From contig JAHDDK010000017.1 of NCBI GenBank assembly GCA_020629375.1, positions 78 through 64,077 on the forward strand: a stretch of 64,000 bases of DNA. Reading direction: 5' to 3'. The stretch comes from Acidimicrobiales bacterium (GTDB taxonomy: Bacteria > Actinomycetota > Acidimicrobiia > Acidimicrobiales > SHLQ01). Positions 36,649 to 62,967 of the stretch are shown here, in pieces (position 1 is the first letter of the stretch; every line of letters starts with the position of its first letter). The translations under genes were made by a program, and so were the position numbers. Below the pieces are notes generated by a model. It saw nothing but the letters and a program-made list of their open reading frames with translations, ran no database searches and was not told the origin of the DNA.

Positions 36649-38934
36649 TCAGACCTCCCCCTTCTGCATGTTGTAAATGTTGTAGACCATCACCGGAAGC
36701 ACCGTCAGGAACATGACGACGGCGACCGCCGAGCCCAGACCTCGATTGCCGAAACTGAACGACTGTTCGAACATCTCGTTGGCGAGCACGTTGTTGCCGA
36801 ACTTGCCACCCTGACCGGCGACCTTGACGATGTCGTACACCTTGGTGACCTGCACGATCATCGTCGTGACCACCACTCCGACGGTCGGCAAGATCGACGG
36901 CAAGGTCACGTTGAAGAACGTCTGCGACTCGGTTGCACCATCGACGCGGGCGGCTTCGATGAACTCCTGCGGCACCGCCTTGATGGCTGCGGACAGAATC
37001 ACCATGGCGAAGCCGGTCTGCATCCAGATCAGGATGATCATCAAGAAGATGTTGTTGAACGGCGTGTTCGTGAGGAACAGCACGGTGTCGGGAACGATCT
37101 CGCCCTGCGCACTCGTGGTGTACCCGCCGATGGCACCTGCCAAGAATCGATAGGCGAGAAAGACCACGACCCCGAACATCAACGATTGCGCCGTTGCTGC
37201 TTGGCCATTCTGCAACCGCGTGACTGCCGTGTAGGCCAACGCCGCGGCGATCGCGACGAGGAACACGATGACGAACAGGCGGAGCGAACCCGTCTCTGCT
37301 CCGAGGCCGATCTTGAGGAACAAGAATCCGGCGACGAACAGCAAGATCAACGGACCGGCAAGGGCATCGAGCCGAGGCTTCGATGTCACGACGAAAAACA
37401 GCGCTGCGGCAAGGAAGAGACCGAAGATAACGAAGCCGATTGGCCGGAAGGTCAGCCCCCCGGGAAGGCCAAGTTCGCCGGTCCCCATCTTGCCCAATCC
37501 GACCCAGATGGCATTCAGGACACCGGTCTGGTTCTTACTAATCGGGCGGGCTTGGTACTGCAGACGCCACACGATCGATGCGCCGACGAACGAGATCGCC
37601 ATCGGCATGAAGATCAGCGTCTTGGCTGCGTTCTCACCGACCGAAGAACGGTCCGCAAGAACGGCGATCAATAGCCCAGCGACGGTCGCCACCGTCACCA
37701 CGGTGATCACCCACCAGAGGTTGTTGAAGAACGTGCCCCGAAGCACCGAGAGCGCACCCATCGACAGGATGAACGCGCCGACCGTCAGGAGCCCGACTGT
37801 CGTCGGGTTCCGTTCGAAGCCCGGCTCACCGTTGCGTCGGATGTTCGTCACGAGGCCGATCACGATGGCGGCGACCGCAAGGACGAAGGCGATCCAGAAG
37901 AGCCGAGACGTGAAGAGCGCCGACCATTCGGAGAAGTCAAACGACTGATCTGAGGTGAAGAGTTCGTTGTAGTTCTCGAATCCGACGTAGTCGACCGAGT
38001 CCCGTCCTCGAAGCGACAAGAGGAAGGTGGTGATCGCCGGGACGATCAGGGATCCGAAGAGGAACAGCAGAGCCGGGCCAAGGAAGACCGTGGCTCGAGC
38101 TCGGTTGTCGAACTCCGCCATCGCCTTCGGTCCACGACTGCCGTTCCATGCAATCGCAAGTCCGAGGAGGACCATTGGCACGATCATGCCGATCCAGCGA
38201 CCCGATCCAGCTCCGGTCCACTCGCCGCCTCCCCACGCGCCGTACGAGAAGCCGATCGCTGCGCCGATGAGGGCGGTCGGAATGGGGTTCCGAAGTCGAA
38301 TGACCCCGCCGAGTCCTGCGCCGACGACCGCACCGATGAGGCCGGCCACGTAGTCAAGCGATGGGTAATACCAAACCTTGAGTTTCCAGGCGAGCAACGC
38401 ACCTGCGATAGCTCCCATCGCGACGCCAGCGGCCAATCGCACTTCGCGCTGGGGGATCGATGCGGTGAGATACGAGCCCGCCCCGAAGACAATCGCACCG
38501 ATAACTGGCCATTCGGCATGCCCGAGAAGACCGCCGCCCGAGAACAAATAGAGCGGGTCTTGCGCAGCAAAGATCGGGAGCACCGACAAGGTGCCTCTCA
38601 TGATCCCGAAGAACAAAGCGCCGAACAGTGCCCCGGCGATACCGGCGTACATCGGCCAGCCACGTTTGGCGGACGACACAACCATGTTCGAGATCACCCA
38701 GATCCCGATGCATACGACCACCGAGATGAACACGGTGCCGAGCATGTCGAGCAGCCGCTCGAGTTTGCCGCGATCGCCAACAGCGATTGCGACCCAGACC
38801 ACGACGATCGCCACGGCGAGCATGCCCACGAATTTCGGCACGTTCGTTCTCGCCAGACCGATCAGGCCGAGAACGGCCGATACCCCCAACCCGATGGCGG
38901 TCAGCCCACCGAGCACGGTCAATACGACGCCCAT
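36649..38934 (-). CDS. carbohydrate ABC transporter permease (MalF-like) with long N-terminal and internal multi-TM extensions
   Basis: EAA loop EAARVDGATESQTFFNVTLP near the C-terminus. At 761 aa it is much longer than ordinary ~300-aa permeases. Confidence 0.8.
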   Translation of the reverse strand: MGVVLTVLGGLTAIGLGVSAVLGLIGLARTNVPKFVGMLAVAIVVVWVAIAVGDRGKLERLLDMLGTVFISVVVCIGIWVISNMVVSSAKRGWPMYAGIAGALFGALFFGIMRGTLSVLPIFAAQDPLYLFSGGGLLGHAEWPVIGAIVFGAGSYLTASIPQREVRLAAGVAMGAIAGALLAWKLKVWYYPSLDYVAGLIGAVVGAGLGGVIRLRNPIPTALIGAAIGFSYGAWGGGEWTGAGSGRWIGMIVPMVLLGLAIAWNGSRGPKAMAEFDNRARATVFLGPALLFLFGSLIVPAITTFLLSLRGRDSVDYVGFENYNELFTSDQSFDFSEWSALFTSRLFWIAFVLAVAAIVIGLVTNIRRNGEPGFERNPTTVGLLTVGAFILSMGALSVLRGTFFNNLWWVITVVTVATVAGLLIAVLADRSSVGENAAKTLIFMPMAISFVGASIVWRLQYQARPISKNQTGVLNAIWVGLGKMGTGELGLPGGLTFRPIGFVIFGLFLAAALFFVVTSKPRLDALAGPLILLFVAGFLFLKIGLGAETGSLRLFVIVFLVAIAAALAYTAVTRLQNGQAATAQSLMFGVVVFLAYRFLAGAIGGYTTSAQGEIVPDTVLFLTNTPFNNIFLMIILIWMQTGFAMVILSAAIKAVPQEFIEAARVDGATESQTFFNVTLPSILPTVGVVVTTMIVQVTKVYDIVKVAGQGGKFGNNVLANEMFEQSFSFGNRGLGSAVAVVMFLTVLPVMVYNIYNMQKGEV

Positions 38935-54253: not shown

Positions 54254-54892
54254 TCAGTCGAGGCGGAGGTCGAAATCGAAGCGGTAATTGCCGACCGGAT
54301 CACCGTTGGGGAAAACCGTCCCGCTGATCGAGATCTCTGTTTGAACGACCTGTCCTCGGGCGCCGAGATACGCGCCGGTTCCGCCGGTCACGACCCGGGT
54401 CGTTACGGCTACTCCATCGCTGGTTGACTCAAGTCCCTGGGTTGTGAGCAGGTCGCCAGGAAACGGATCCGTCTCGGTGATCAGCCCAAAGAGGAACTCC
54501 TGCTGGGTCACCAGGTGAGGATTCGGACGCTGAGGGTGGAGGATGACGTGCCCGCGGCAGAACCATTGCCCGATCGCGCCGTCTGTCGTCGGGATGAATC
54601 CATCACCGGCGATCGTCCCGCCCGGGTAGATCAATCCCTCCAGATAGAAGGGAGATCCACGCAGATCGAACTCTTCGAGACCGGCATCCTCTCCGAGTAG
54701 CTGCGGCATCGGTGCAACGCGACCCGTCTCCCCGATGGGGGCGACGTCGAGCGTCAACATCGACGTCTGAGCTGCGGCGCTGGGCGCCAGTGACAGGCCA
54801 GCACCGACTCCCACCGCTCCTCCGACGGCGGCCCCGAGTCCGAGCGCCGACCTTCGACTCAGCCCCCTCGATGATTCGTCCAGATTGGTCAT
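54254..54892 (-). CDS. Tat-signal secreted protein, allene-oxide-cyclase/dirigent-like barrel (tentative)
   Basis: Twin-arginine signal SRRSALGLGAAV...AAAQ. The C-terminal VTGGTGAYLGARG motif resembles AOC/dirigent-like domains. Confidence 0.45.
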   Translation of the reverse strand: MTNLDESSRGLSRRSALGLGAAVGGAVGVGAGLSLAPSAAAQTSMLTLDVAPIGETGRVAPMPQLLGEDAGLEEFDLRGSPFYLEGLIYPGGTIAGDGFIPTTDGAIGQWFCRGHVILHPQRPNPHLVTQQEFLFGLITETDPFPGDLLTTQGLESTSDGVAVTTRVVTGGTGAYLGARGQVVQTEISISGTVFPNGDPVGNYRFDFDLRLD

Positions 54893-54983
54893 GGTGCTTC
54901 TGCCTTTCTTCTGCTCTTCTCTGGAGTTCTTCGTGCACGACGTTCCGGAGGCGGCGGTCCCGCTCCGGACAACTCATCGGCGA

Positions 54984-57900
54984 TCACGGATCACCGGGTT
55001 CGAGAACTGGGAACGCCGGACAGGTCGACGGAACAGGCTCCTCAGCGACTCCGAACTGCACCCACTCAGCCGCTGTGAGGTTGCGGCCCGCTGCATCGCA
55101 CGCCATCTCGATCCATCGAGACGGGTCGAGGTCCCAGACGAGCCCGTACCCATCCGTGAACGATGTCGCATATCGACCGTCCGAGCTCACGTTTGTCGCG
55201 ACCTCCGGATCGCCCGGTAGTGGTTGTCCGATTGCCATCCCGGTGGCGACATCGAAGACTCGCGGGCGACCATCCAGGTTGGCCACGAGTCGAGACCCGT
55301 CCGGCGTCACGGCGAGCGGGGCGTAGCTCTGAAGGCCGGAGGTCGCTCCGACGAATTCGCGACCCCGAGGTCGGAAGGACGACCCATCACGCTCGGAGAT
55401 CACGCCGTCATCTCCGGCCGTGAACAGCGCATCGCCCGTCGGCGAGAAGCGCACGGCGGTCACTTGACCGTTGCCTTCAGCGATGAGCCGCTCGAAACGA
55501 AGCGTCTTCGCATCGAACGCGGCGGCGCGCCCGTCGGACGCTGCAATGACAACCACCTCGCCACCCGGGTCCAAGGCGAATCCAACGACGTTGTCGGATC
55601 CGTTTGTGGCGAAGTAGTCCGACTCGGCGAGCACCTCACCCGACGCCACGTCAATGAGTTCCACAAGAGGTGGCCCAGGTTGTCCGTAGCCCACGAAGAA
55701 CCGATTGTCCGAAGAATCGAAGAGCCCAGACCACGCACTCTGGCGGTTGACGGTGATCTCGGTCATGGACAGGTCGTCGGCGTCGAGGAGATGGACGCCT
55801 CGAGCGTCGGCGAACGCAGCGGGCCCGAAGACGTCCAGCAGCAACCGTCCAGCCGCGCCGAACTCCACACGCGAGACGAGTGGCTCCAACTCCACAAGTA
55901 CGGCGTTCTGACGCTGACCTTCCATCGAAGTTGCGCGGGTTCCATCGTTCGAGACGAGAAACTCGAAGGGGTCAGACAGCGGAACGGCCCGCGCCACGAG
56001 TCGACGACCATCGAGCGAGAAGACTCGTAATCGCGAGCCGGCGACGGCGAGGGTCTCCCCTGTGGGCGAGATCGAAACGGGCACGCCACCCGGACTCAGC
56101 TCGTCTCCTAGATCGACCTCGCGGTCGGCGGAACTGTCGACCTCCATCGTCCGAAAAACACCCGTCGGCAACCCCAACACGAACATCCCGTCGTGGAAGT
56201 CGAGCCCAAAGCCTGTCCGTCCGCCCGACGTGATCTGCTGCGAGATGCGCAGCTCGCCCACTTGTCTCATGGACCCTGCGTCAACCTCGACGAGGTAGCT
56301 CTCCGTCGCAGCGACGATCGTGTCGTCGGACACCCACCGGATCGTGGTCGGGCGACCCGGTCCTCGACCTTGTGACTCGATCAGCCGCGGCCGGGTGACC
56401 GAAACGTCGCCGATTCTGTCGAGATCGAGATCGTGTACCCGGATCGAAACTCCGCCAGCCGTTGCGACTCGTGTGCCGGTCTGATCGAAGGCAATATCGG
56501 CAACGCCGCCAGGGAAGTCGAGAGGCTCATGCGCCGAGGCGCCAACATCGACGTCCATGGCTTCGAAGTCCGTTTCGGGATGGGCGAGAGCCGTACCAAT
56601 GAGTCTTGGCTGCCCCTGGACGGACCACAGTTCGAGTGTTCCGCGCTCCGTGCCGGCGGCGAGCAACGTTCCGTCGGGCGAGAAGGCGAGGGCGCCGACC
56701 GGCCCTCCGGTGTCGAGGTGCGCGACCACAGTGAGTCTGCGGTCGAAGAGTTGGACCCCGGAGGCAAGGTCGGCGACGGCGATGAGGGCCGAGTTCGACG
56801 ACGACGCGAGGGCACCGCGACTCTGGACCTCCGCGACATGAGCTGTTCCGGCTTCAAGATCGACGAGTTCGACCGTTCCTCGACTCAGCGCTACGACCGC
56901 AGAGGCCCCCACCCAGTCGACGTCGAGAACATCACCTTCTGATCCGTGTGCGCCGAGAAAGGAGCCGAGCCCGACGAGAACCTCGTGGAGCGCACCGAGC
57001 GACTCAGGACCCGGATCTCGTCGGTGCGCTTCAACGGCGAGGAGGAGTGCCGTTTCTCGGTTCGTCTCGACAAGGCGCGCCGCCGACGAGCTCATGCGAC
57101 GTGCATCGGCCACCGTTCGTTCGGCTTCGGCCACGAGTCGTTGATCTCGCTCCCGCCCTTGCGCTCCGATTGCAAAGATCGCAGCTGCGAGGGCGGTCAC
57201 GAGCAGCACAGCTGCAACCCTCAGCGCGTGGCCGAGCCGACGGTTCCGCCCTTCGATGAGCTCGGCGACCGCCCGTTCGGCGGCACGTTCGGCCTCAGCA
57301 GCGTGCGTGCTCGCTTCGATCAGGTCGTGTTCGTCGGCCGAAAGAGTTGCACCCCGTTCGACCAGTTCGACGGCTGATGCGAGACGTGCGCCTCGGATGA
57401 GCTCGGCATCGTCTCGTCCTGCGTCGACCCATGCGTGGGTTCGCTCTGCGATGACTCGCTCCAGACGCAAGTGCTCGAGATCCTCGTCGATCCATTGGCG
57501 AAGTCGTGGCCAACCGTCGAAGAGCGCTTCATGCGCGATCTCGATCGTGGGAGCTCGGGTGAACGGGTCGGTGTCGGTGGTCAACAACCGAGCGTCGATG
57601 AAGGCCTCGATGACCTCCTTCATGCTGGCTGGAACATCTGCGCGTTGCGTCCGACGACGGGTGAGCCGGTCCTCGTATCCCAAGTGCACTAGTCGCCGCA
57701 TGAATCGGCGGAGGCCCGACCGTTCGGCATCGTCGAGATCGTCATGGAGCGCCTCGGCACGTGCTGCCAAAGACGCCATCAACCCGCCGATGCGCTCATA
57801 GGCGTCGAGGGTCAGGACATACGTGCCACTTCGGTCCGCCTCCCGCCAGAGCTCGGACAGACAGAACTGGAGAAGTGGGAGGGAGGCCGTCGCACCGCTG

Positions 57901-60017
57901 GTATCAGCCAGCAACGTGGACACGAGCGCAGCATCGACTCGCCCCCCAGCCAGACGTGCGGGTTGGGTGATAGCGGCTTCGAGGTCGCCCGGCTCCATCG
58001 CCCGAATCGGAACAATGCCGTCCTGGCAGAGCGACCCAAGGCGCGGCCAACGAAGCGCTTCGTCGAAGAAGTCCGATCGCAACGTGGCGACGACTCGTAC
58101 ATCGACCTCGTTGCTGTGGACCATTCGATGGAGTTCGTCGACGAAGGTCTGTGCGTCGACGGGGTGGGCGAGCGTGAAGAGTTCTTCGAGCTGGTCCACG
58201 AGCAGGTTCACGGTCCCGCCGTCGGACGACATTGCCGCGATCCGTTGGACAAGAGGCCCGTGATTCTCGACCGTTTCGATCGATCGAAGTGCGGTCTCGA
58301 GTGCGGCCACCGGATCGGATCCGGGTTCCATCCGGACGATCCAGCCCTCGTCGGATGCGCGTTGCCGTCGGATCGCCGGGAGTACGCCGGCTCGGGCGAT
58401 CGACGATTTCCCCGCACCTGATGGCCCGACGATCACGATGAAGGGGGCTCCGCGACTGAGGCGGGCAACCACCGTGTCGACAGCGAGGCTTCGTCCGAAG
58501 AAGTACCGGGAATCGTGCTCATCGAAGGCTGCGAGGCCGACGTACGGAGTGGTCGACGAGGCCCCTGTCGAGCTGGGTGTCCGCGGGCCGAGCACCGACT
58601 CGATCGTTCGGTGTACATCGACGAGCGTCAACGTGCCCGCGTGAGCCGCCTCGAGCGCCTCTGCCAGACGCCCGTCGATTTCCGGCGTCTGAGGAACGGC
58701 CCCAAGCAGTTGTTTGCCGAGCCGCGCAAACGCACGTGCATCATCCGTCTCGTTGACCGCACGTCCGAGAAGCTGTTGGACACCAATGCCGACGAGCGAC
58801 ACTCGTCCATCGTGGACCCGCACCGAAGATGCGTCGAGAGCGCCATGGAGCTGGCCGTCGGCTGCCGCCGCGAGAAGCACGGATGCGATCGCAGAGAGCA
58901 CCTCGAGAACGTCTCGGCCTTCGCGTCCCTCGATCCACTCCGCGCAGAGTGTCCCCCTGGATCCGCCGTGCACGACATAGATGGCTCCGTGCTCTCGCCA
59001 GACGTCGAGCAGGGGCACGTGCGCAGAGTGGGTGAAGCGCATGAGTCCTCGCGACGCGTGTGCGAGTGATCGAACGACGACGGGGTCGTCAGCGATCGGT
59101 GGCCTCACAATGGTCATCTCGCCGGTTGCATCGATGTGGTCAGCGATGCACGTCCATCGTTCGATCGGGCCCCGCCGTTCGATCAACTCCATGGGCCGAT
59201 AGCAGCGCGTTGGCGGAGTCGTCGTCGCCGTCGACAGCGCCTCGCCCTCCCTCAACGCTCGACCGAATTCCTCGAACTCGGCCGATGGTTCCAGCCCGGT
59301 CCGCTCGATGAGAAGCGACCGGTAGCGATCCAATGCCCGAACCGCATCCGCCGGACCGTGTACTCGCCGCCGAGCAACGAGCTCGAGCCGTCGAAACTCC
59401 TCGGACAGAGGCTCGGCTTCCAGCAGCAGACCAACGCGGGACAGTGCATCTTCAGGGCGGCCGCTTTCGATGCACGTACGCACCTCGAGCACCTGGTGTG
59501 CCGTTCGAATCCCGCGCAACCGGGTCACCTCGACACGGCACCAGGCCCGATCGCCCAAGTCACCGAAGGGCGCGCCGCGCCAGAGCGTCTCGGCGTCTTG
59601 TGACAACGCCGAACTTCGTCGGATGTCTCCCTGATCGAGTGCTTCACGAGCTCGAGAGACCAGAGCGTCGTATCGGGATGCGTCGAACTGCGAGTCGCTG
59701 ATCGTGAGTGTCAGCCCGACGGGTGACGAGACAATCCGATCACCGCCGATCGCCTTTCGGAGCTTGGACACGTAGGTCTGGAGGGTGCGTTCGGCGCGAT
59801 CGGGCGGCACACCGTCCCAAACCGCGTCCATGAGCACCGCGAGCGAGACGGGACGACCGGCATGAGCGAGGAGGCAGCCGAGGAGCACCCGCTGCCGAGG
59901 TCCTCCAATGGCCACCGCCTCCCCGCCTGACTGCACGGCGATGCCGCCGAGAACCCGGAACATCATCCCGGAGCCCACCACCGTTCGAGTCTCACCGGTT
60001 CCACCACCCTCGGTCAA
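54984..60017 (-). CDS. SARP (wHTH+BTAD) / degenerate kinase-like / STAND P-loop NTPase / TM helix / beta-propeller (WD40-like) multidomain regulator
   Basis: MMFRVLGG...LLGCLLAH...YVSKLRKAIG and the WRG..FGDL BTAD region mark the SARP module. Walker A GPSGAGKSS is at DNA 58402-58428. A hydrophobic helix LRVAAVLLVTALAAAIFAIGA is at about 57160-57235. About 720 aa of repeats (FSPDG, SPTG) follow, ending ...ACDAAGRNLTAAEW. The start is TTG 60017 (TTGA overlap with the upstream stop) or ATG 59966. Confidence 0.8.
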   Translation of the reverse strand: MTEGGGTGETRTVVGSGMMFRVLGGIAVQSGGEAVAIGGPRQRVLLGCLLAHAGRPVSLAVLMDAVWDGVPPDRAERTLQTYVSKLRKAIGGDRIVSSPVGLTLTISDSQFDASRYDALVSRAREALDQGDIRRSSALSQDAETLWRGAPFGDLGDRAWCRVEVTRLRGIRTAHQVLEVRTCIESGRPEDALSRVGLLLEAEPLSEEFRRLELVARRRVHGPADAVRALDRYRSLLIERTGLEPSAEFEEFGRALREGEALSTATTTPPTRCYRPMELIERRGPIERWTCIADHIDATGEMTIVRPPIADDPVVVRSLAHASRGLMRFTHSAHVPLLDVWREHGAIYVVHGGSRGTLCAEWIEGREGRDVLEVLSAIASVLLAAAADGQLHGALDASSVRVHDGRVSLVGIGVQQLLGRAVNETDDARAFARLGKQLLGAVPQTPEIDGRLAEALEAAHAGTLTLVDVHRTIESVLGPRTPSSTGASSTTPYVGLAAFDEHDSRYFFGRSLAVDTVVARLSRGAPFIVIVGPSGAGKSSIARAGVLPAIRRQRASDEGWIVRMEPGSDPVAALETALRSIETVENHGPLVQRIAAMSSDGGTVNLLVDQLEELFTLAHPVDAQTFVDELHRMVHSNEVDVRVVATLRSDFFDEALRWPRLGSLCQDGIVPIRAMEPGDLEAAITQPARLAGGRVDAALVSTLLADTSGATASLPLLQFCLSELWREADRSGTYVLTLDAYERIGGLMASLAARAEALHDDLDDAERSGLRRFMRRLVHLGYEDRLTRRRTQRADVPASMKEVIEAFIDARLLTTDTDPFTRAPTIEIAHEALFDGWPRLRQWIDEDLEHLRLERVIAERTHAWVDAGRDDAELIRGARLASAVELVERGATLSADEHDLIEASTHAAEAERAAERAVAELIEGRNRRLGHALRVAAVLLVTALAAAIFAIGAQGRERDQRLVAEAERTVADARRMSSSAARLVETNRETALLLAVEAHRRDPGPESLGALHEVLVGLGSFLGAHGSEGDVLDVDWVGASAVVALSRGTVELVDLEAGTAHVAEVQSRGALASSSNSALIAVADLASGVQLFDRRLTVVAHLDTGGPVGALAFSPDGTLLAAGTERGTLELWSVQGQPRLIGTALAHPETDFEAMDVDVGASAHEPLDFPGGVADIAFDQTGTRVATAGGVSIRVHDLDLDRIGDVSVTRPRLIESQGRGPGRPTTIRWVSDDTIVAATESYLVEVDAGSMRQVGELRISQQITSGGRTGFGLDFHDGMFVLGLPTGVFRTMEVDSSADREVDLGDELSPGGVPVSISPTGETLAVAGSRLRVFSLDGRRLVARAVPLSDPFEFLVSNDGTRATSMEGQRQNAVLVELEPLVSRVEFGAAGRLLLDVFGPAAFADARGVHLLDADDLSMTEITVNRQSAWSGLFDSSDNRFFVGYGQPGPPLVELIDVASGEVLAESDYFATNGSDNVVGFALDPGGEVVVIAASDGRAAAFDAKTLRFERLIAEGNGQVTAVRFSPTGDALFTAGDDGVISERDGSSFRPRGREFVGATSGLQSYAPLAVTPDGSRLVANLDGRPRVFDVATGMAIGQPLPGDPEVATNVSSDGRYATSFTDGYGLVWDLDPSRWIEMACDAAGRNLTAAEWVQFGVAEEPVPSTCPAFPVLEPGDP

Positions 60018-61024
60018 CTGCCCACTTCGGTGAAGAAGTCCCAGGCCACCCGAGCCCCGTCGAGGCCGGAGGTGTCGTACTTCTCGCCGAACCAGCGATT
60101 CTTGAGAACGTCGACGGCAACATGGCGGTGTAGAGCGCCATCAGGACAACCGTCGAAGTCGAACTGGATGCCGAGCTCACCGAAGTCGGATTCAGATGGG
60201 GTGGTGTCACAGCCGACCAGTCCAGCCATCTCCGTGAACGCCTCGAACACCCCCTTGTCGAGAATCTCGTTCACCCCAGGCACCTGCCGGAAATCCGAGG
60301 GCCCGTCTCCTGCATACGGGAAGCCTGGATTGTCGAGGCCATGGACGTGCATGACTGGTGTCGGCACGTCTGGAGTGCACCCGGGCGGAACGTACATGCC
60401 CCCCATCACGTAGGCGGTCTCGATCACGTCCGACGCCCCGCAGATCAGGGTCATCGAGAACATGGCTCCGAGCGCATCACCTGCGATTCGGATTCGATTG
60501 GCATCCACACACCAGTCATCGACGAGTACCGAAGCGAGATCTCGGAAGAATTCGACGTCGTCTCGGCCTTCTTCGTCGAAGTCGGGCACGATCTCCCAGT
60601 TCTTACCGATCGTCAACAAGGCGGGTCCGTCCAGCTCGGTGTCGAGGCCATTCGGATGAACGGAGAGGAAGTTCTCTTCCTCAGACAGCTCGTCGAATCC
60701 CGAATACGAGCGGAATGCGGCGGCGTTGTAGGTCAGCGAATGGAAGGCGACGACTGCGGGTCCCGTCTCCGTTTCGGTCCAGGACTCCGGAACGTGGATC
60801 TCGACGATGTACTCCTTTCCGCCCGACGAAATCACGAGCTCCTGCGAGCCTGTTCGAAGGGATGAACCGCACGCTGGCGGGGCAACCGTTGTGCTGGTCG
60901 TGCTCGTCGTCGACGTCGACGGTGTGATGGTCGACGTCGACGACGCGCTATCTGTCGGGGCCTCGGTCGAACCGCAGGCCGTGGCCAACACAACGATGAT
61001 GATCAGTGCATGCAAACGACGCAT
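60014..61024 (-). CDS. lipoprotein, LpqC/PHB-depolymerase-like alpha/beta-hydrolase fold, probably lacking the nucleophile Ser
   Basis: Lipobox VVLATACG plus a Ser/Thr-rich linker. VVAFHSL...FLSVHPNG resembles the LpqC family. The expected G-x-S-x-G position reads GDALG. Confidence 0.55.
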   Translation of the reverse strand: MRRLHALIIIVVLATACGSTEAPTDSASSTSTITPSTSTTSTTSTTVAPPACGSSLRTGSQELVISSGGKEYIVEIHVPESWTETETGPAVVAFHSLTYNAAAFRSYSGFDELSEEENFLSVHPNGLDTELDGPALLTIGKNWEIVPDFDEEGRDDVEFFRDLASVLVDDWCVDANRIRIAGDALGAMFSMTLICGASDVIETAYVMGGMYVPPGCTPDVPTPVMHVHGLDNPGFPYAGDGPSDFRQVPGVNEILDKGVFEAFTEMAGLVGCDTTPSESDFGELGIQFDFDGCPDGALHRHVAVDVLKNRWFGEKYDTSGLDGARVAWDFFTEVGS

Positions 61025-61137: not shown

Positions 61138-62967
61138 TCACGAGATGGAGATGACCTGGGGGGACGTGCCGACGTCGACCGAGAAGTCGAATCGTTCACC
61201 GTCGTCGCAGGTCACGGCACGAAGATCGACCGCTCCGGCTGCCATCCGAACCGTTGTCGAAGCACCAGCGGGCAACGTGTCGTCGTCGAGTTCGTCGAGT
61301 CCGTAGTAGCTCGCCCAGTCGTGGCTCCAAAGCAGAAAACAGATCTCGGCGCCGGTGTCGTTGCGCAACTCGACCTCGGTCGAACCTGACACCGGGTCGG
61401 CGGCGACCGTGATCGACTCGCCGAAAAGGGGCTCGTCGTCCACGGCGATCAGCACTTCCCAACCGCCATCGGGGATACCCCCATCGTCCTGAGCACAGAC
61501 CCAGAACCCCTCGCCATCAGCGCCGAAGTCCCAGAGCTGATCGACCAGGGAGTAGTCCTCGACGAGGTCACCGTCGACGAACCACAGCGCCGACCATCGC
61601 ACGCCGTCGGCCATGTCGATCCAGTCGGCACTGAAACACAGTTCGGCAGCTCCGGCTTGCACGATCGCGAGATCGTCAACAGGGAATCCGGCAGTGTCGA
61701 TGCCGGTAGAGAAGATCGGTCGATAGAAGACCGCGTCACTGGGCGACCAATCGCTTCCCGGGACAGGTGTCGAGCGTTCCCACACTCGCTGTGGTGTGGC
61801 GCCATCTGCCTCGGCGAAGAGGCCCGCCGCCAAGGCGATGGGCCGGATGCCATTGATGAACCCGCCGATCGGGACGCACTGGTCGTCGTCGTCGACGGAC
61901 CCGTCGCCGTTCGTGTCGACGAGCACCCGGCAGTCGGCGACTTCGGATCCTTCGCCAGCACTCACCTGCGTGGGCACACCGATCAGGCGTCCGTCGTCGT
62001 CGATGGCCGCACCGCCGGAGTTACCACCGGCGATCGTGGCGTCGGTCTTGATCCATCCCCGGTCGACCGTTCCCGCCGCAGGGTCCTGGGTAAACCCGGA
62101 GATCGACCCGTCGGTGAAGGTGATCGTCTCGCCGCCGATGCCCGGGTAGCCGAGCACCCGGATCCGGTCGCCGAGATCGACGGCGTCGGAATCACCGAGC
62201 TCGATGAACGGGAACGACGCCGCCATCGGCTCGCCGTTGACCGACTCGGCGATCTGGAGGACGGCCAAGTCGAGCGCCGGGTCGACCGCGAGCACGTCGG
62301 CCCGATACACGACCTCGGGCACTTGATCGGCCCGGTCGATGACGCCGATCAGGATCTGGTCGTGCTCGCAGGGCGGTTGCGGGTCGATGACGTGGAAGTT
62401 GGTCAAGATCCGACCGCCAGCCGTCACGATCGAACCAGAACCCGAGCAGCTGGGCCGGCCGTCCTCGTCGGCGACGAGGATCTGGACGGTCGCCCGGGCG
62501 AGTTGCTCAATCGTCGGGGCGACAGGAACAGGTTCATCCGGTTGAACCGTCTCGCTCGAGTTGTCGGCCGGTTCGGTGGTCGACGGCGTCGACGTCGTCT
62601 GTTCGGCAATCGTGGTCGTCGTCGCGATCGGATCTGGAGCAGCGTCGTCGGTCCGACTCGAACGGGTCAGTGCAACGGACACGATCAAGCCAAGCAGCCC
62701 AAATCCAGCCGCCAACGCCACAACGACAAGAACCCAGACACCACCTCTGCCGCGTTTCGGGGATGGAGCGGGCACCGGTCGGACATTCAGCGAGTCGCTC
62801 GGAGCGCCGAACGACGGACCTTGTGGAGGAAGAGGCGGCGGGGTGATCGGACGTTGATCCGCCAAAGGGGTGTGCGGGGCCGGCGGAGGCTGCGGCGGTG
62901 GTGGCGTCGGCGCCGGTCGACCCTCAGGGTCTGGTGGTGGAGGTGGGGGCGATTCGACCATGTCCAT
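61138..62967 (-). CDS. membrane-anchored trypsin-like (S1C/HtrA-like) serine protease with C-terminal unknown domain
   Basis: Pro-rich N-terminus and one TM helix (VWVLVVVALAAGFGLLGLIV). Catalytic triad contexts are TNFHVI, DLAVLQI and GNSGGA. About 230 aa of unassigned C-terminal sequence follow. Confidence 0.8.
   Translation of the reverse strand: MDMVESPPPPPPDPEGRPAPTPPPPQPPPAPHTPLADQRPITPPPLPPQGPSFGAPSDSLNVRPVPAPSPKRGRGGVWVLVVVALAAGFGLLGLIVSVALTRSSRTDDAAPDPIATTTTIAEQTTSTPSTTEPADNSSETVQPDEPVPVAPTIEQLARATVQILVADEDGRPSCSGSGSIVTAGGRILTNFHVIDPQPPCEHDQILIGVIDRADQVPEVVYRADVLAVDPALDLAVLQIAESVNGEPMAASFPFIELGDSDAVDLGDRIRVLGYPGIGGETITFTDGSISGFTQDPAAGTVDRGWIKTDATIAGGNSGGAAIDDDGRLIGVPTQVSAGEGSEVADCRVLVDTNGDGSVDDDDQCVPIGGFINGIRPIALAAGLFAEADGATPQRVWERSTPVPGSDWSPSDAVFYRPIFSTGIDTAGFPVDDLAIVQAGAAELCFSADWIDMADGVRWSALWFVDGDLVEDYSLVDQLWDFGADGEGFWVCAQDDGGIPDGGWEVLIAVDDEPLFGESITVAADPVSGSTEVELRNDTGAEICFLLWSHDWASYYGLDELDDDTLPAGASTTVRMAAGAVDLRAVTCDDGERFDFSVDVGTSPQVISIS

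Follow-up and report, generated by a model that had tools for sequence, protein, structure and literature searches.

Introduction

Large SARP-STAND regulators, AfsR among them, act as central switches in the physiology of actinobacteria, and few of the signals that activate them have been described. The window analysed here, a stretch of 64,000 nucleotides from contig JAHDDK010000017.1 of an Acidimicrobiales bacterium (assembly GCA_020629375.1), carries on its reverse strand a gene (54984..60017) for a protein of 1677 residues that is best compared with AfsR combined with the topology of ToxR, as an uncharacterised variant of the large SARP-STAND regulators. The order of its domains, from the N-terminus, is confirmed as SARP module, pseudokinase, nSTAND1 NTPase, hydrophobic helix, three-helix stalk, two propellers and a tail with a pair of cysteines. 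By analogy with the systems described below we favour, on balance, the view that the protein is a single-pass membrane receptor with its N-terminus inside and its C-terminus outside the cell (N-in/C-out), which would double as a transcription activator.

The AfsR-like large SARPs of Streptomyces (SARP-NB-ARC-TPR) and the window protein share a plan in which an N-terminal SARP is followed by a STAND NTPase in the centre and a sensor of repeats at the C-terminus. In AfsR the NOD and TPR domains inhibit the SARP, with ATP binding lifting the inhibition and the SARP forming a side-by-side dimer (PMC10936776), and by analogy a nucleotide-gated release of the SARP is likely in the window protein. 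Unlike in AfsR, the NTPase is nSTAND1 rather than NB-ARC, and the sensor is a WD40 double propeller rather than TPR, with no TPR match in Pfam and with AlphaFold2 and Foldseek giving propellers. Further differences from AfsR are the inserted kinase fold and the predicted membrane helix between switch and sensor, and in contrast to AfsR-like large SARPs the gene does not lie beside a biosynthetic cluster. Published SARP classifications recognise just two types of large SARP, NB-ARC-TPR (AfsR-like) and LAL.

AfsK/AfsR and PknH/EmbR are pairs of separate kinase and SARP proteins, in which a SARP and a Hanks-type kinase are coupled in function. In the family described here the two are fused in one polypeptide, with the kinase intact in most members but catalytically dead in the window copy. 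Impaired or absent catalysis in a regulatory module of a membrane protein is also a feature of the pseudokinase domain of Mycobacterium tuberculosis Rv3910 (MviN) and of PknI, although the host proteins are different and the sequence identity is 16-18%.

ToxR and CadC consist of a cytoplasmic N-terminal OmpR-type winged helix-turn-helix (wHTH), one membrane helix and an extracytoplasmic C-terminal sensor, which is the layout predicted here, but BTAD, kinase-fold and NTPase modules are absent from them, and their size is 5-6 times smaller. Past the wHTH no sequence relationship between ToxR or CadC and the window protein was found, the ToxR-like membrane-bound regulators being a functional class and not a homology family.

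The nSTAND1 family was named by Kaur et al. (2021; PMC8195603) in predicted counter-invader systems with kinase, FHA, TIR, caspase and trypsin heads, with BTAD and SARP going unmentioned. With such counter-invader proteins the window protein shares its NTPase family (348 bits), the possession of a repeat sensor and a variable N-terminal head, but the head is here a predicted transcription activator in place of a caspase, TIR or protease domain, and no effector-associated domain, defence neighbourhood or PADLOC defence system was found. In a 2026 survey of STANDs in prokaryotes, transcriptional regulators appear solely as non-immune members. In Apaf-1, too, two WD40 propellers come after a STAND NTPase, but the protein is cytosolic, with an NB-ARC NTPase, a CARD output and no membrane helix.

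Domain organisation of the regulator

From its TTG start the open reading frame has 1677 sense codons and ends in TGA, with a codon-position GC of 0.73/0.51/0.71 that is even throughout the gene, and coordinates, codon count and this uniformity uphold the frame given in the original prediction for this locus. The TTG shares a 4-nucleotide overlap with the stop codon of the upstream gene. Because the N-termini of relatives read M-x-F/I-R-V-L-G and the database copy (P0001) is 1660 residues long, beginning at Met18 of the TTG-numbered frame, the real start is probably the ATG at codon 17 or 18 (59964-59969). Residues are counted from the TTG throughout, as they were in the original prediction. 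The strings quoted there (GPSGAGKSS, MTIVR, LHGALDASS, VGIGV, the helix and ACDAAGRNLTAAEW) were all located in the translation, and its SARP, kinase-like, STAND and WD40 assignments agree with profile searches, a leave-one-out hidden Markov model (HMM) and two AlphaFold2 models (residues 265-495 and 955-1677) compared by Foldseek.

The wHTH (residues 40-92; 59742..59900, on the reverse strand as are all features of the regulator) matches PF00486 Trans_reg_C with 35.4 bits (cutoff 26.2) and is followed directly by BTAD (residues 111-256; 59250..59687), which matches PF03704 over the full length of the profile (1-146) with 71.7 bits (cutoff 22.1; E 1e-19). Searched against the PDB, residues 17-265 matched the chains of the AfsR cryo-EM structure (8hvr, E 6e-22) and EmbR (2fez, E 2e-17). 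By these profile and structure matches the wHTH and BTAD together constitute a SARP module, as had been proposed for residues 18-265 or so. The match to the NCBIfam AfsR equivalog model is confined to residues 12-267, with 110 bits against a cutoff of 1430.

Residues 275-480 (58578..59195) align with the kinase domains of relatives (MAFFT) and are, judged from alignment and model, a Hanks-type kinase fold in which the chemistry is dead. Alignment with 18 relatives places Thr302, within MTIVR (301-305), at the position of the beta3 Lys, refining the earlier remark that the VAIK Lys was missing there, and Ala at that of the alphaC Glu. HRDVKPAN has become HGALDASS (LHGALDASS, 390-398), with HRD replaced by HGA and the catalytic-loop Asn by Ser, and DFG has become GIG (VGIGV, 409-413), such that the catalytic five (beta3, alphaC, HRD Asp, loop Asn and DFG Asp) read T, A, A, S and G. 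The Gly-loop is gone, the window protein reading RRGPIE in its place, and the activation loop and APE region is about 27 residues shorter than in relatives. With all five catalytic residues changed, the Gly-loop lost and the activation loop deleted, the domain is termed here a pseudokinase and not a kinase, and since every catalytic residue has been lost the fold could serve solely as a scaffold or allosteric spacer.

When residues 260-500 were searched alone no Pfam family was matched, and in the PDB PpkA was the only match, at E 1.1, so the kinase homology is recognisable only by way of the family relatives. An HMM built from the relatives minus the window protein gives residues 301-415 a score of 46 bits (E 2e-16), the family profile matches PknE, PknA, PknB and StkP at 1e-59 to 1e-54, and in the MAFFT alignment the family-specific block HPHIVPLYDYWRE is retained in the window as HSAHVPLLDVWRE. 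The AlphaFold2 model of residues 265-495 has a mean predicted local distance difference test score (pLDDT) of 89 and a predicted template modelling score (pTM) of 0.84, with Foldseek returning PknI, PknA, PknB, Stk1 and the kinase-homology domain of Rv3910 at template modelling scores of 0.64-0.70. The kinase-like layout with degenerate signatures, as first described, is therefore recovered by family alignment, leave-one-out HMM and structural comparison.

The nSTAND1 P-loop NTPase (residues 491-870; 57408..58547) matches PF20703 with 348 bits (E 1e-103) over positions 1-378 of the 379 in the profile. Walker A (GPSGAGKSS, 531-539; 58401-58427), Walker B (LLVDQLEELF, 605-614; 58176-58205) and the His motif IEIAHEAL conserved in the family (825-832) are intact, and the window protein keeps the columns that are invariant in the family alignment, including those of all three motifs. 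The full-length match and the intact Walker motifs place the domain in nSTAND1, giving a family to the STAND NTPase that had been read from its Walker A. A PDB sequence search with nSTAND1 plus the linker that follows detected no solved relative. This linker (residues 871-931; 57225..57407) is charged and helical, ending in the basic cluster RNRRLGH (924-930).

Past the hydrophobic helix (see below), residues 955-1016 (56970..57155) are modelled as a three-helix stalk (model residues 2-28, 33-46 and 50-62; pLDDT 84-93) with the motif LLLAVEAHRR, which is conserved in two family alignments. The stalk leads to two tandem WD40-type propellers (residues 1019-1630; 55128..56963), a putative extracytoplasmic sensor identified by Pfam, AlphaFold2 and Foldseek. 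Pfam WD40 (PF00400) was matched with 47.6 bits against a cutoff of 27, together with many propeller families, the WD40-type matches lying at 1040-1140 and 1408-1632. The model of residues 955-1677 (pLDDT 76, pTM 0.67) has three helices, about 51 strands and two short tail helices, and its Foldseek matches (E 1e-24 to 1e-20) are headed by 2ymu, which we take to be a tandem double propeller, followed by Pwp2 and the tandem WD domain of Utp21 (these three at E 1e-24 to 1e-22) and by Apaf-1. On the strands of the model and these matches the sensor is read as two propellers of about seven blades each, some 13-14 blades in total, and not as a single giant one. The giant beta-propeller originally placed at about 960-1677 thus stands as regards its fold but gives way to a stalk and a tandem pair.

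A search for homologues with the C-terminal 723 residues alone gave only generic WD40 proteins with partial coverage, and no secreted stand-alone homologue. The C-terminal tail (residues 1631-1677; 54987..55127) contains ACDAAGRNLTAAEW at 1639-1652, as expected from the original prediction, within the conserved motif W..xAC..AGR.LT..EW...C, for which no Pfam model was found. At least two Cys within the last 75 residues, inside this conserved motif, occur in 100 of 114 relatives. The tail is probably disulfide-bonded, through Cys1640 and Cys1666 in the window protein. Two forms of the Cys-pair motif exist among relatives, W..xAC..AGR.LT..EW...C and R.LT..EC..Y....C, and in two variants with solute-binding domains (P0015 and P0028) the motif is placed between the helix and the binding domain.

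The predicted membrane helix and topology

Between linker and stalk lies LRVAAVLLVTALAAAIFAIGA (residues 932-952; 57162..57224), predicted to be a single transmembrane helix on the grounds of hydropathy, insertion energy and conservation. It is the hydropathy maximum of the whole protein (Kyte-Doolittle 19-mer 2.58), substantiating the strongly hydrophobic helix proposed at about 928-952, and its 19-mers alone have a negative insertion free-energy sum (-1.96 as against +5.16 for the best elsewhere, on a Hessa-type scale). Among the 120 best homologues, all 115 that bear nSTAND1 have an equivalent segment 40-95 residues past the NTPase, with a Kyte-Doolittle value of 1.84-3.30 that is the global maximum of the protein in every case. 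The segment is present behind SARP, kinase, cyclase, caspase and XRE-HTH heads alike, and is conserved in hydrophobicity and not in sequence. A hydrophobic segment was also found in 117 of 124 representatives of the SARP-kinase family (see below).

The flanks of the segment are unequal in charge, the 15 preceding residues containing 4-8 Lys and Arg in relatives and the 15 following residues 0-5, which is in keeping with the positive-inside rule and an N-terminus inside the cell, as the DNA-binding head would also require. In some relatives the position of the propellers, behind the same helix, is occupied by extracellular solute-binding domains, SBP_bac_1 in P0015 (at 1184-1481) and Bmp/PnrA in P0039 and at the Acidimicrobiales locus L010. 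The number of Cys is even after the helix in 90 of 114 relatives compared with 63 of 114 before it; the window protein has two after the helix (Cys1640 and Cys1666) and eight before. This bias after the helix agrees with that reported for exported proteins of aerobic Actinobacteria, which favour even Cys numbers (PMC2823432). With the indirect evidence of hydropathy, conservation, charge, domain swaps and Cys parity all pointing one way, an N-in/C-out topology appears likely.

A wholly cytoplasmic regulator of the AfsR/Apaf-1 kind, in which the helix would be buried in an oligomer core or act as a peripheral membrane anchor, with the propellers sensing a ligand in the cytosol, seems unlikely in comparison with these data. 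It would accord with the Apaf-1 layout of a STAND NTPase and two WD40 propellers, with the presence of Apaf-1 among the Foldseek matches and with the cytosolic nature of AfsR-type SARP-STAND regulators, and one relative does appear to be of this kind. This is a SARP-nSTAND1-TPR protein of 1104 residues from an Acidimicrobiaceae metagenome-assembled genome (MAG; L011, 5998-9309), evidently a soluble AfsR-like counterpart in which nSTAND1 replaces NB-ARC. However, it is precisely this TPR variant that is without any hydrophobic segment, whereas the helix of the window protein scores at transmembrane grade, as the sole such segment of the protein, and the conserved hydrophobicity in all 115 relatives, the charge of the flanks, the extracellular domains at the propeller position and the even Cys numbers behind the helix are all at odds with a cytosolic sensor.

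There is perhaps an even chance that a membrane helix characterises the whole nSTAND1 branch, such that its SARP-, kinase-, cyclase-, caspase-, TIR- and XRE-headed members would be transmembrane NLR-like receptors in which an outside repeat sensor gates a cytoplasmic switch. Were this so, a receptor type held to be strictly intracellular would have its outside-in version in this branch, of which the window protein would be the one-component transcription-factor form, with the kinase reduced to a scaffold.

Proposed mechanism

In the mechanism that we favour the stalk, the two propellers and the tail would together form the sensor outside the cell, with the SARP module and the pseudokinase inside together with nSTAND1 as a nucleotide-dependent switch and oligomerisation module. 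A ligand or envelope cue would bind or cluster the propellers, and the signal would be relayed via the single helix and the charged linker to the NTPase, which would exchange its nucleotide and self-associate. The SARP modules would thereby be set side by side, as is the AfsR SARP on direct repeats that overlap the -35 element, and transcription would be activated at the membrane in the manner of ToxR and CadC. The scheme is modelled on AfsR and its membrane-bound part on ToxR-type regulators, and it is from these that we infer the direction of signalling, the oligomerisation, the NTP-driven switch, the transcriptional output and the existence of DNA targets. If it holds, the SARP-kinase-nSTAND1 family would couple an extracytoplasmic sensor straight to a SARP output and so offer a route to the signals of these regulators, and STAND/NLR-type switches could be driven from beyond the membrane.

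A number of points weigh against such a receptor. The Cys-parity and charge statistics are drawn from related, non-independent sequences. WD40 propellers that adjoin a STAND NTPase have classically been found in the cytosol, Apaf-1 being an example. One helix is a poor conduit for allostery, and the export of about 720 residues behind a cytoplasmic part of 930 residues would be demanding. Near the gene neither a target promoter nor a SARP-type repeat was found. The neighbourhood is also silent, with tblastn of three neighbouring genes finding no homologue within 6 kb at 27 related loci and with three inspected contigs that carry relatives having no neighbourhood gene in common with the window. 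Four rival explanations (a cytosolic regulator, as above, and defence, proteolysis and decay, see below) each have part of the evidence on their side but fit the data less well than the membrane receptor.

The SARP-kinase-nSTAND1 family and decay of the kinase

The nearest homologues are 29-40% identical and 1650-1980 residues long, with the order Trans_reg_C, BTAD, Pkinase, nSTAND1 and WD40. The 120 best full-length homologues comprise 19 SARP-kinase-nSTAND1, 41 SARP-nSTAND1 and 19 kinase-nSTAND1 proteins and 36 with nSTAND1 behind other heads, such that 60 of the 115 nSTAND1 relatives have a SARP N-terminus. A SARP plus kinase profile was searched against 1.84 billion cluster representatives, of which the best 150 matches (582-832 bits) were taken and 149 sequences retrieved. 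Nearly all of the 150 match the profile over its full length, beginning at their N-terminus, and among them SARP-kinase-nSTAND1 proteins make up at least 137 clusters at 50% identity. The representatives have a median length of 1712 residues and a median of 717 residues after the helix, compared with 725 in the window protein. SARP-bearing relatives in species-representative genomes come from Acidimicrobiia MAGs (Ilumatobacteraceae, Acidimicrobiales and Acidimicrobiaceae). At the nucleotide level (blastn) the related loci gave no match to the window.

The fusion of a SARP with a pseudokinase and a STAND NTPase was initially regarded as an unusual combination, a view that neither the number of clusters nor the frequency of SARP heads sustains. 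It had been allowed that the architecture might prove common and already characterised; common it is, but a search of the literature on the SARP-(kinase)-nSTAND1-helix-propeller architecture found no description of it. The database names for such proteins are "BTAD domain-containing putative transcriptional regulator" or "WD40 repeat protein", and many hundreds of entries so named could be re-annotated.

All five catalytic residues are kept in 135 of 146 representatives and the kinase is degenerate in the remaining 11, so the window copy belongs to a dead-kinase minority of a large recurrent family. Among near relatives the kinase is intact in 11 of the 19 with a SARP head and degenerate in 8, as against intact in 19 of 19 kinase-nSTAND1 proteins without a SARP (the relatives compared were P0030-P0116 and P0002-P0028 and the representatives P0241-P0389). 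Kinase decay seems confined to SARP-headed members, and from the comparison it would seem that a protein with a SARP output can dispense with catalysis. That the fused kinase has decayed repeatedly behind a SARP head amounts to a natural experiment on what a kinase fold contributes without catalysis.

The degenerate kinase could alternatively mark a gene in decay, the regulator as a whole losing its function, a reading prompted by the loss of the five catalytic residues, the deletion of the activation loop and a closest relative that is merely about 34% identical. This is highly improbable, as the frame is intact across 5 kb and its codon-position GC is uniform, the motifs of NTPase, SARP, helix and tail have all been kept, the pseudokinase is still confidently modelled as a kinase fold, and degenerate kinases recur in other full-length proteins, among the near relatives and among the representatives.

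Two further features of the relatives were noted. Five of them (P0014, P0016, P0017, P0024 and P0026) have an extra class-III adenylate/guanylate-cyclase-like domain of about 190 residues between BTAD and kinase, giving five modules in the predicted cytoplasmic part, and in P0024 and P0026 the cyclase-like and kinase motifs both appear degenerate. Directly upstream of P0002 a second open frame (L001:3-2790, forward strand), to which the gene calls of the collection assign other genes, encodes the C-terminal part of nSTAND1 plus downstream sequence and may be a tandem paralogue or pseudogene of the regulator.

Gene neighbourhood

Upstream of the regulator and on the same strand lie a gene for a lipoprotein esterase of the polyhydroxybutyrate-depolymerase type (60014-61024), which overlaps the regulator by 4 nucleotides, and, two genes from the regulator, one for an HtrA/DegS/MarP-like serine protease of 609 residues (61138-62967). 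The protease has a proline-rich N-terminus, one membrane helix (residues 77-100 or thereabouts) and no PDZ domain, with the C-terminal 270 residues or so being acidic and without assignment. The C-terminal part of a monomeric isocitrate dehydrogenase is also encoded upstream on this strand. The examined remainder of the window is given over to sugar metabolism and central metabolism, with no biosynthetic cluster.

DegS-type proteases initiate cascades of regulated proteolysis in other bacteria, and by extension the adjacent protease might trim the outside of the regulator, with a second cleavage freeing the SARP-STAND portion. Protease, esterase and regulator share a strand, the last two genes overlapping, but nothing in the neighbourhood is shared with the 27 related loci or the three inspected contigs, and the operon and proteolysis idea was therefore dropped as the main model. 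No site-2 protease is nearby and ToxR-type regulators function without release, leaving release by proteolysis very unlikely. The gene neighbourhood, which the original prediction had proposed to survey across Actinobacteria, accordingly yields no common partner for the regulator.

The same neighbourhood bears on a role in conflict or defence, in which the STAND-propeller core would detect an invader or damage and the SARP would trigger a defence or suicide programme. nSTAND1 was first defined within predicted counter-invader systems (PMC8195603), relatives bear caspase, TIR, cyclase and XRE-HTH heads on the same scaffold, and a trypsin-like protease gene lies two genes upstream. That protease is, however, of the HtrA/DegS/MarP envelope type without an effector-associated domain, and the regulator itself has neither an effector head nor such a domain. 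A PADLOC defence scan gave only weak P-loop matches for the regulator, the window holds metabolic genes and no defence island, the neighbourhood varies among relatives, and an outward-facing sensor would be ill-suited to intracellular phage sensing. A defence sensor of the nSTAND1 type is on this evidence decidedly doubtful, and the membrane receptor remains the preferred reading.

Downstream of the regulator, on the same strand, is a gene (54254-54892) for a protein of 212 residues with a twin-arginine signal (SRRSALGLGAAVGG...AAAQ), for which Pfam, NCBIfam and PADLOC gave no match. The surroundings of the regulator gene were searched for SARP-type direct repeats and promoters, with no usable SARP box and no target promoter identified. 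A tandem pair of 11 nucleotides (CTTCTGCCTTT/CTTCTGCTCTT, forward strand; 54897-54918) lies 5-26 nucleotides upstream of the ATG of the twin-arginine-signal gene and was rejected as a SARP binding site as it sits within the ribosome-binding region, being probably merely the purine-rich part of that region. A hairpin soon after the stop codon of the regulator (TCCGGAG-N12-CTCCGGA, at about 54945-54972) was judged unusable as a SARP binding site and may be a terminator without a T-tract. Elsewhere in the window an ABC-transporter permease of 761 residues (36649-38934, reverse strand) has an N-terminal extension of about 500 residues that matches no Pfam family at E<=1e-5, with the match to BPD_transp_1 beginning at residue 503.

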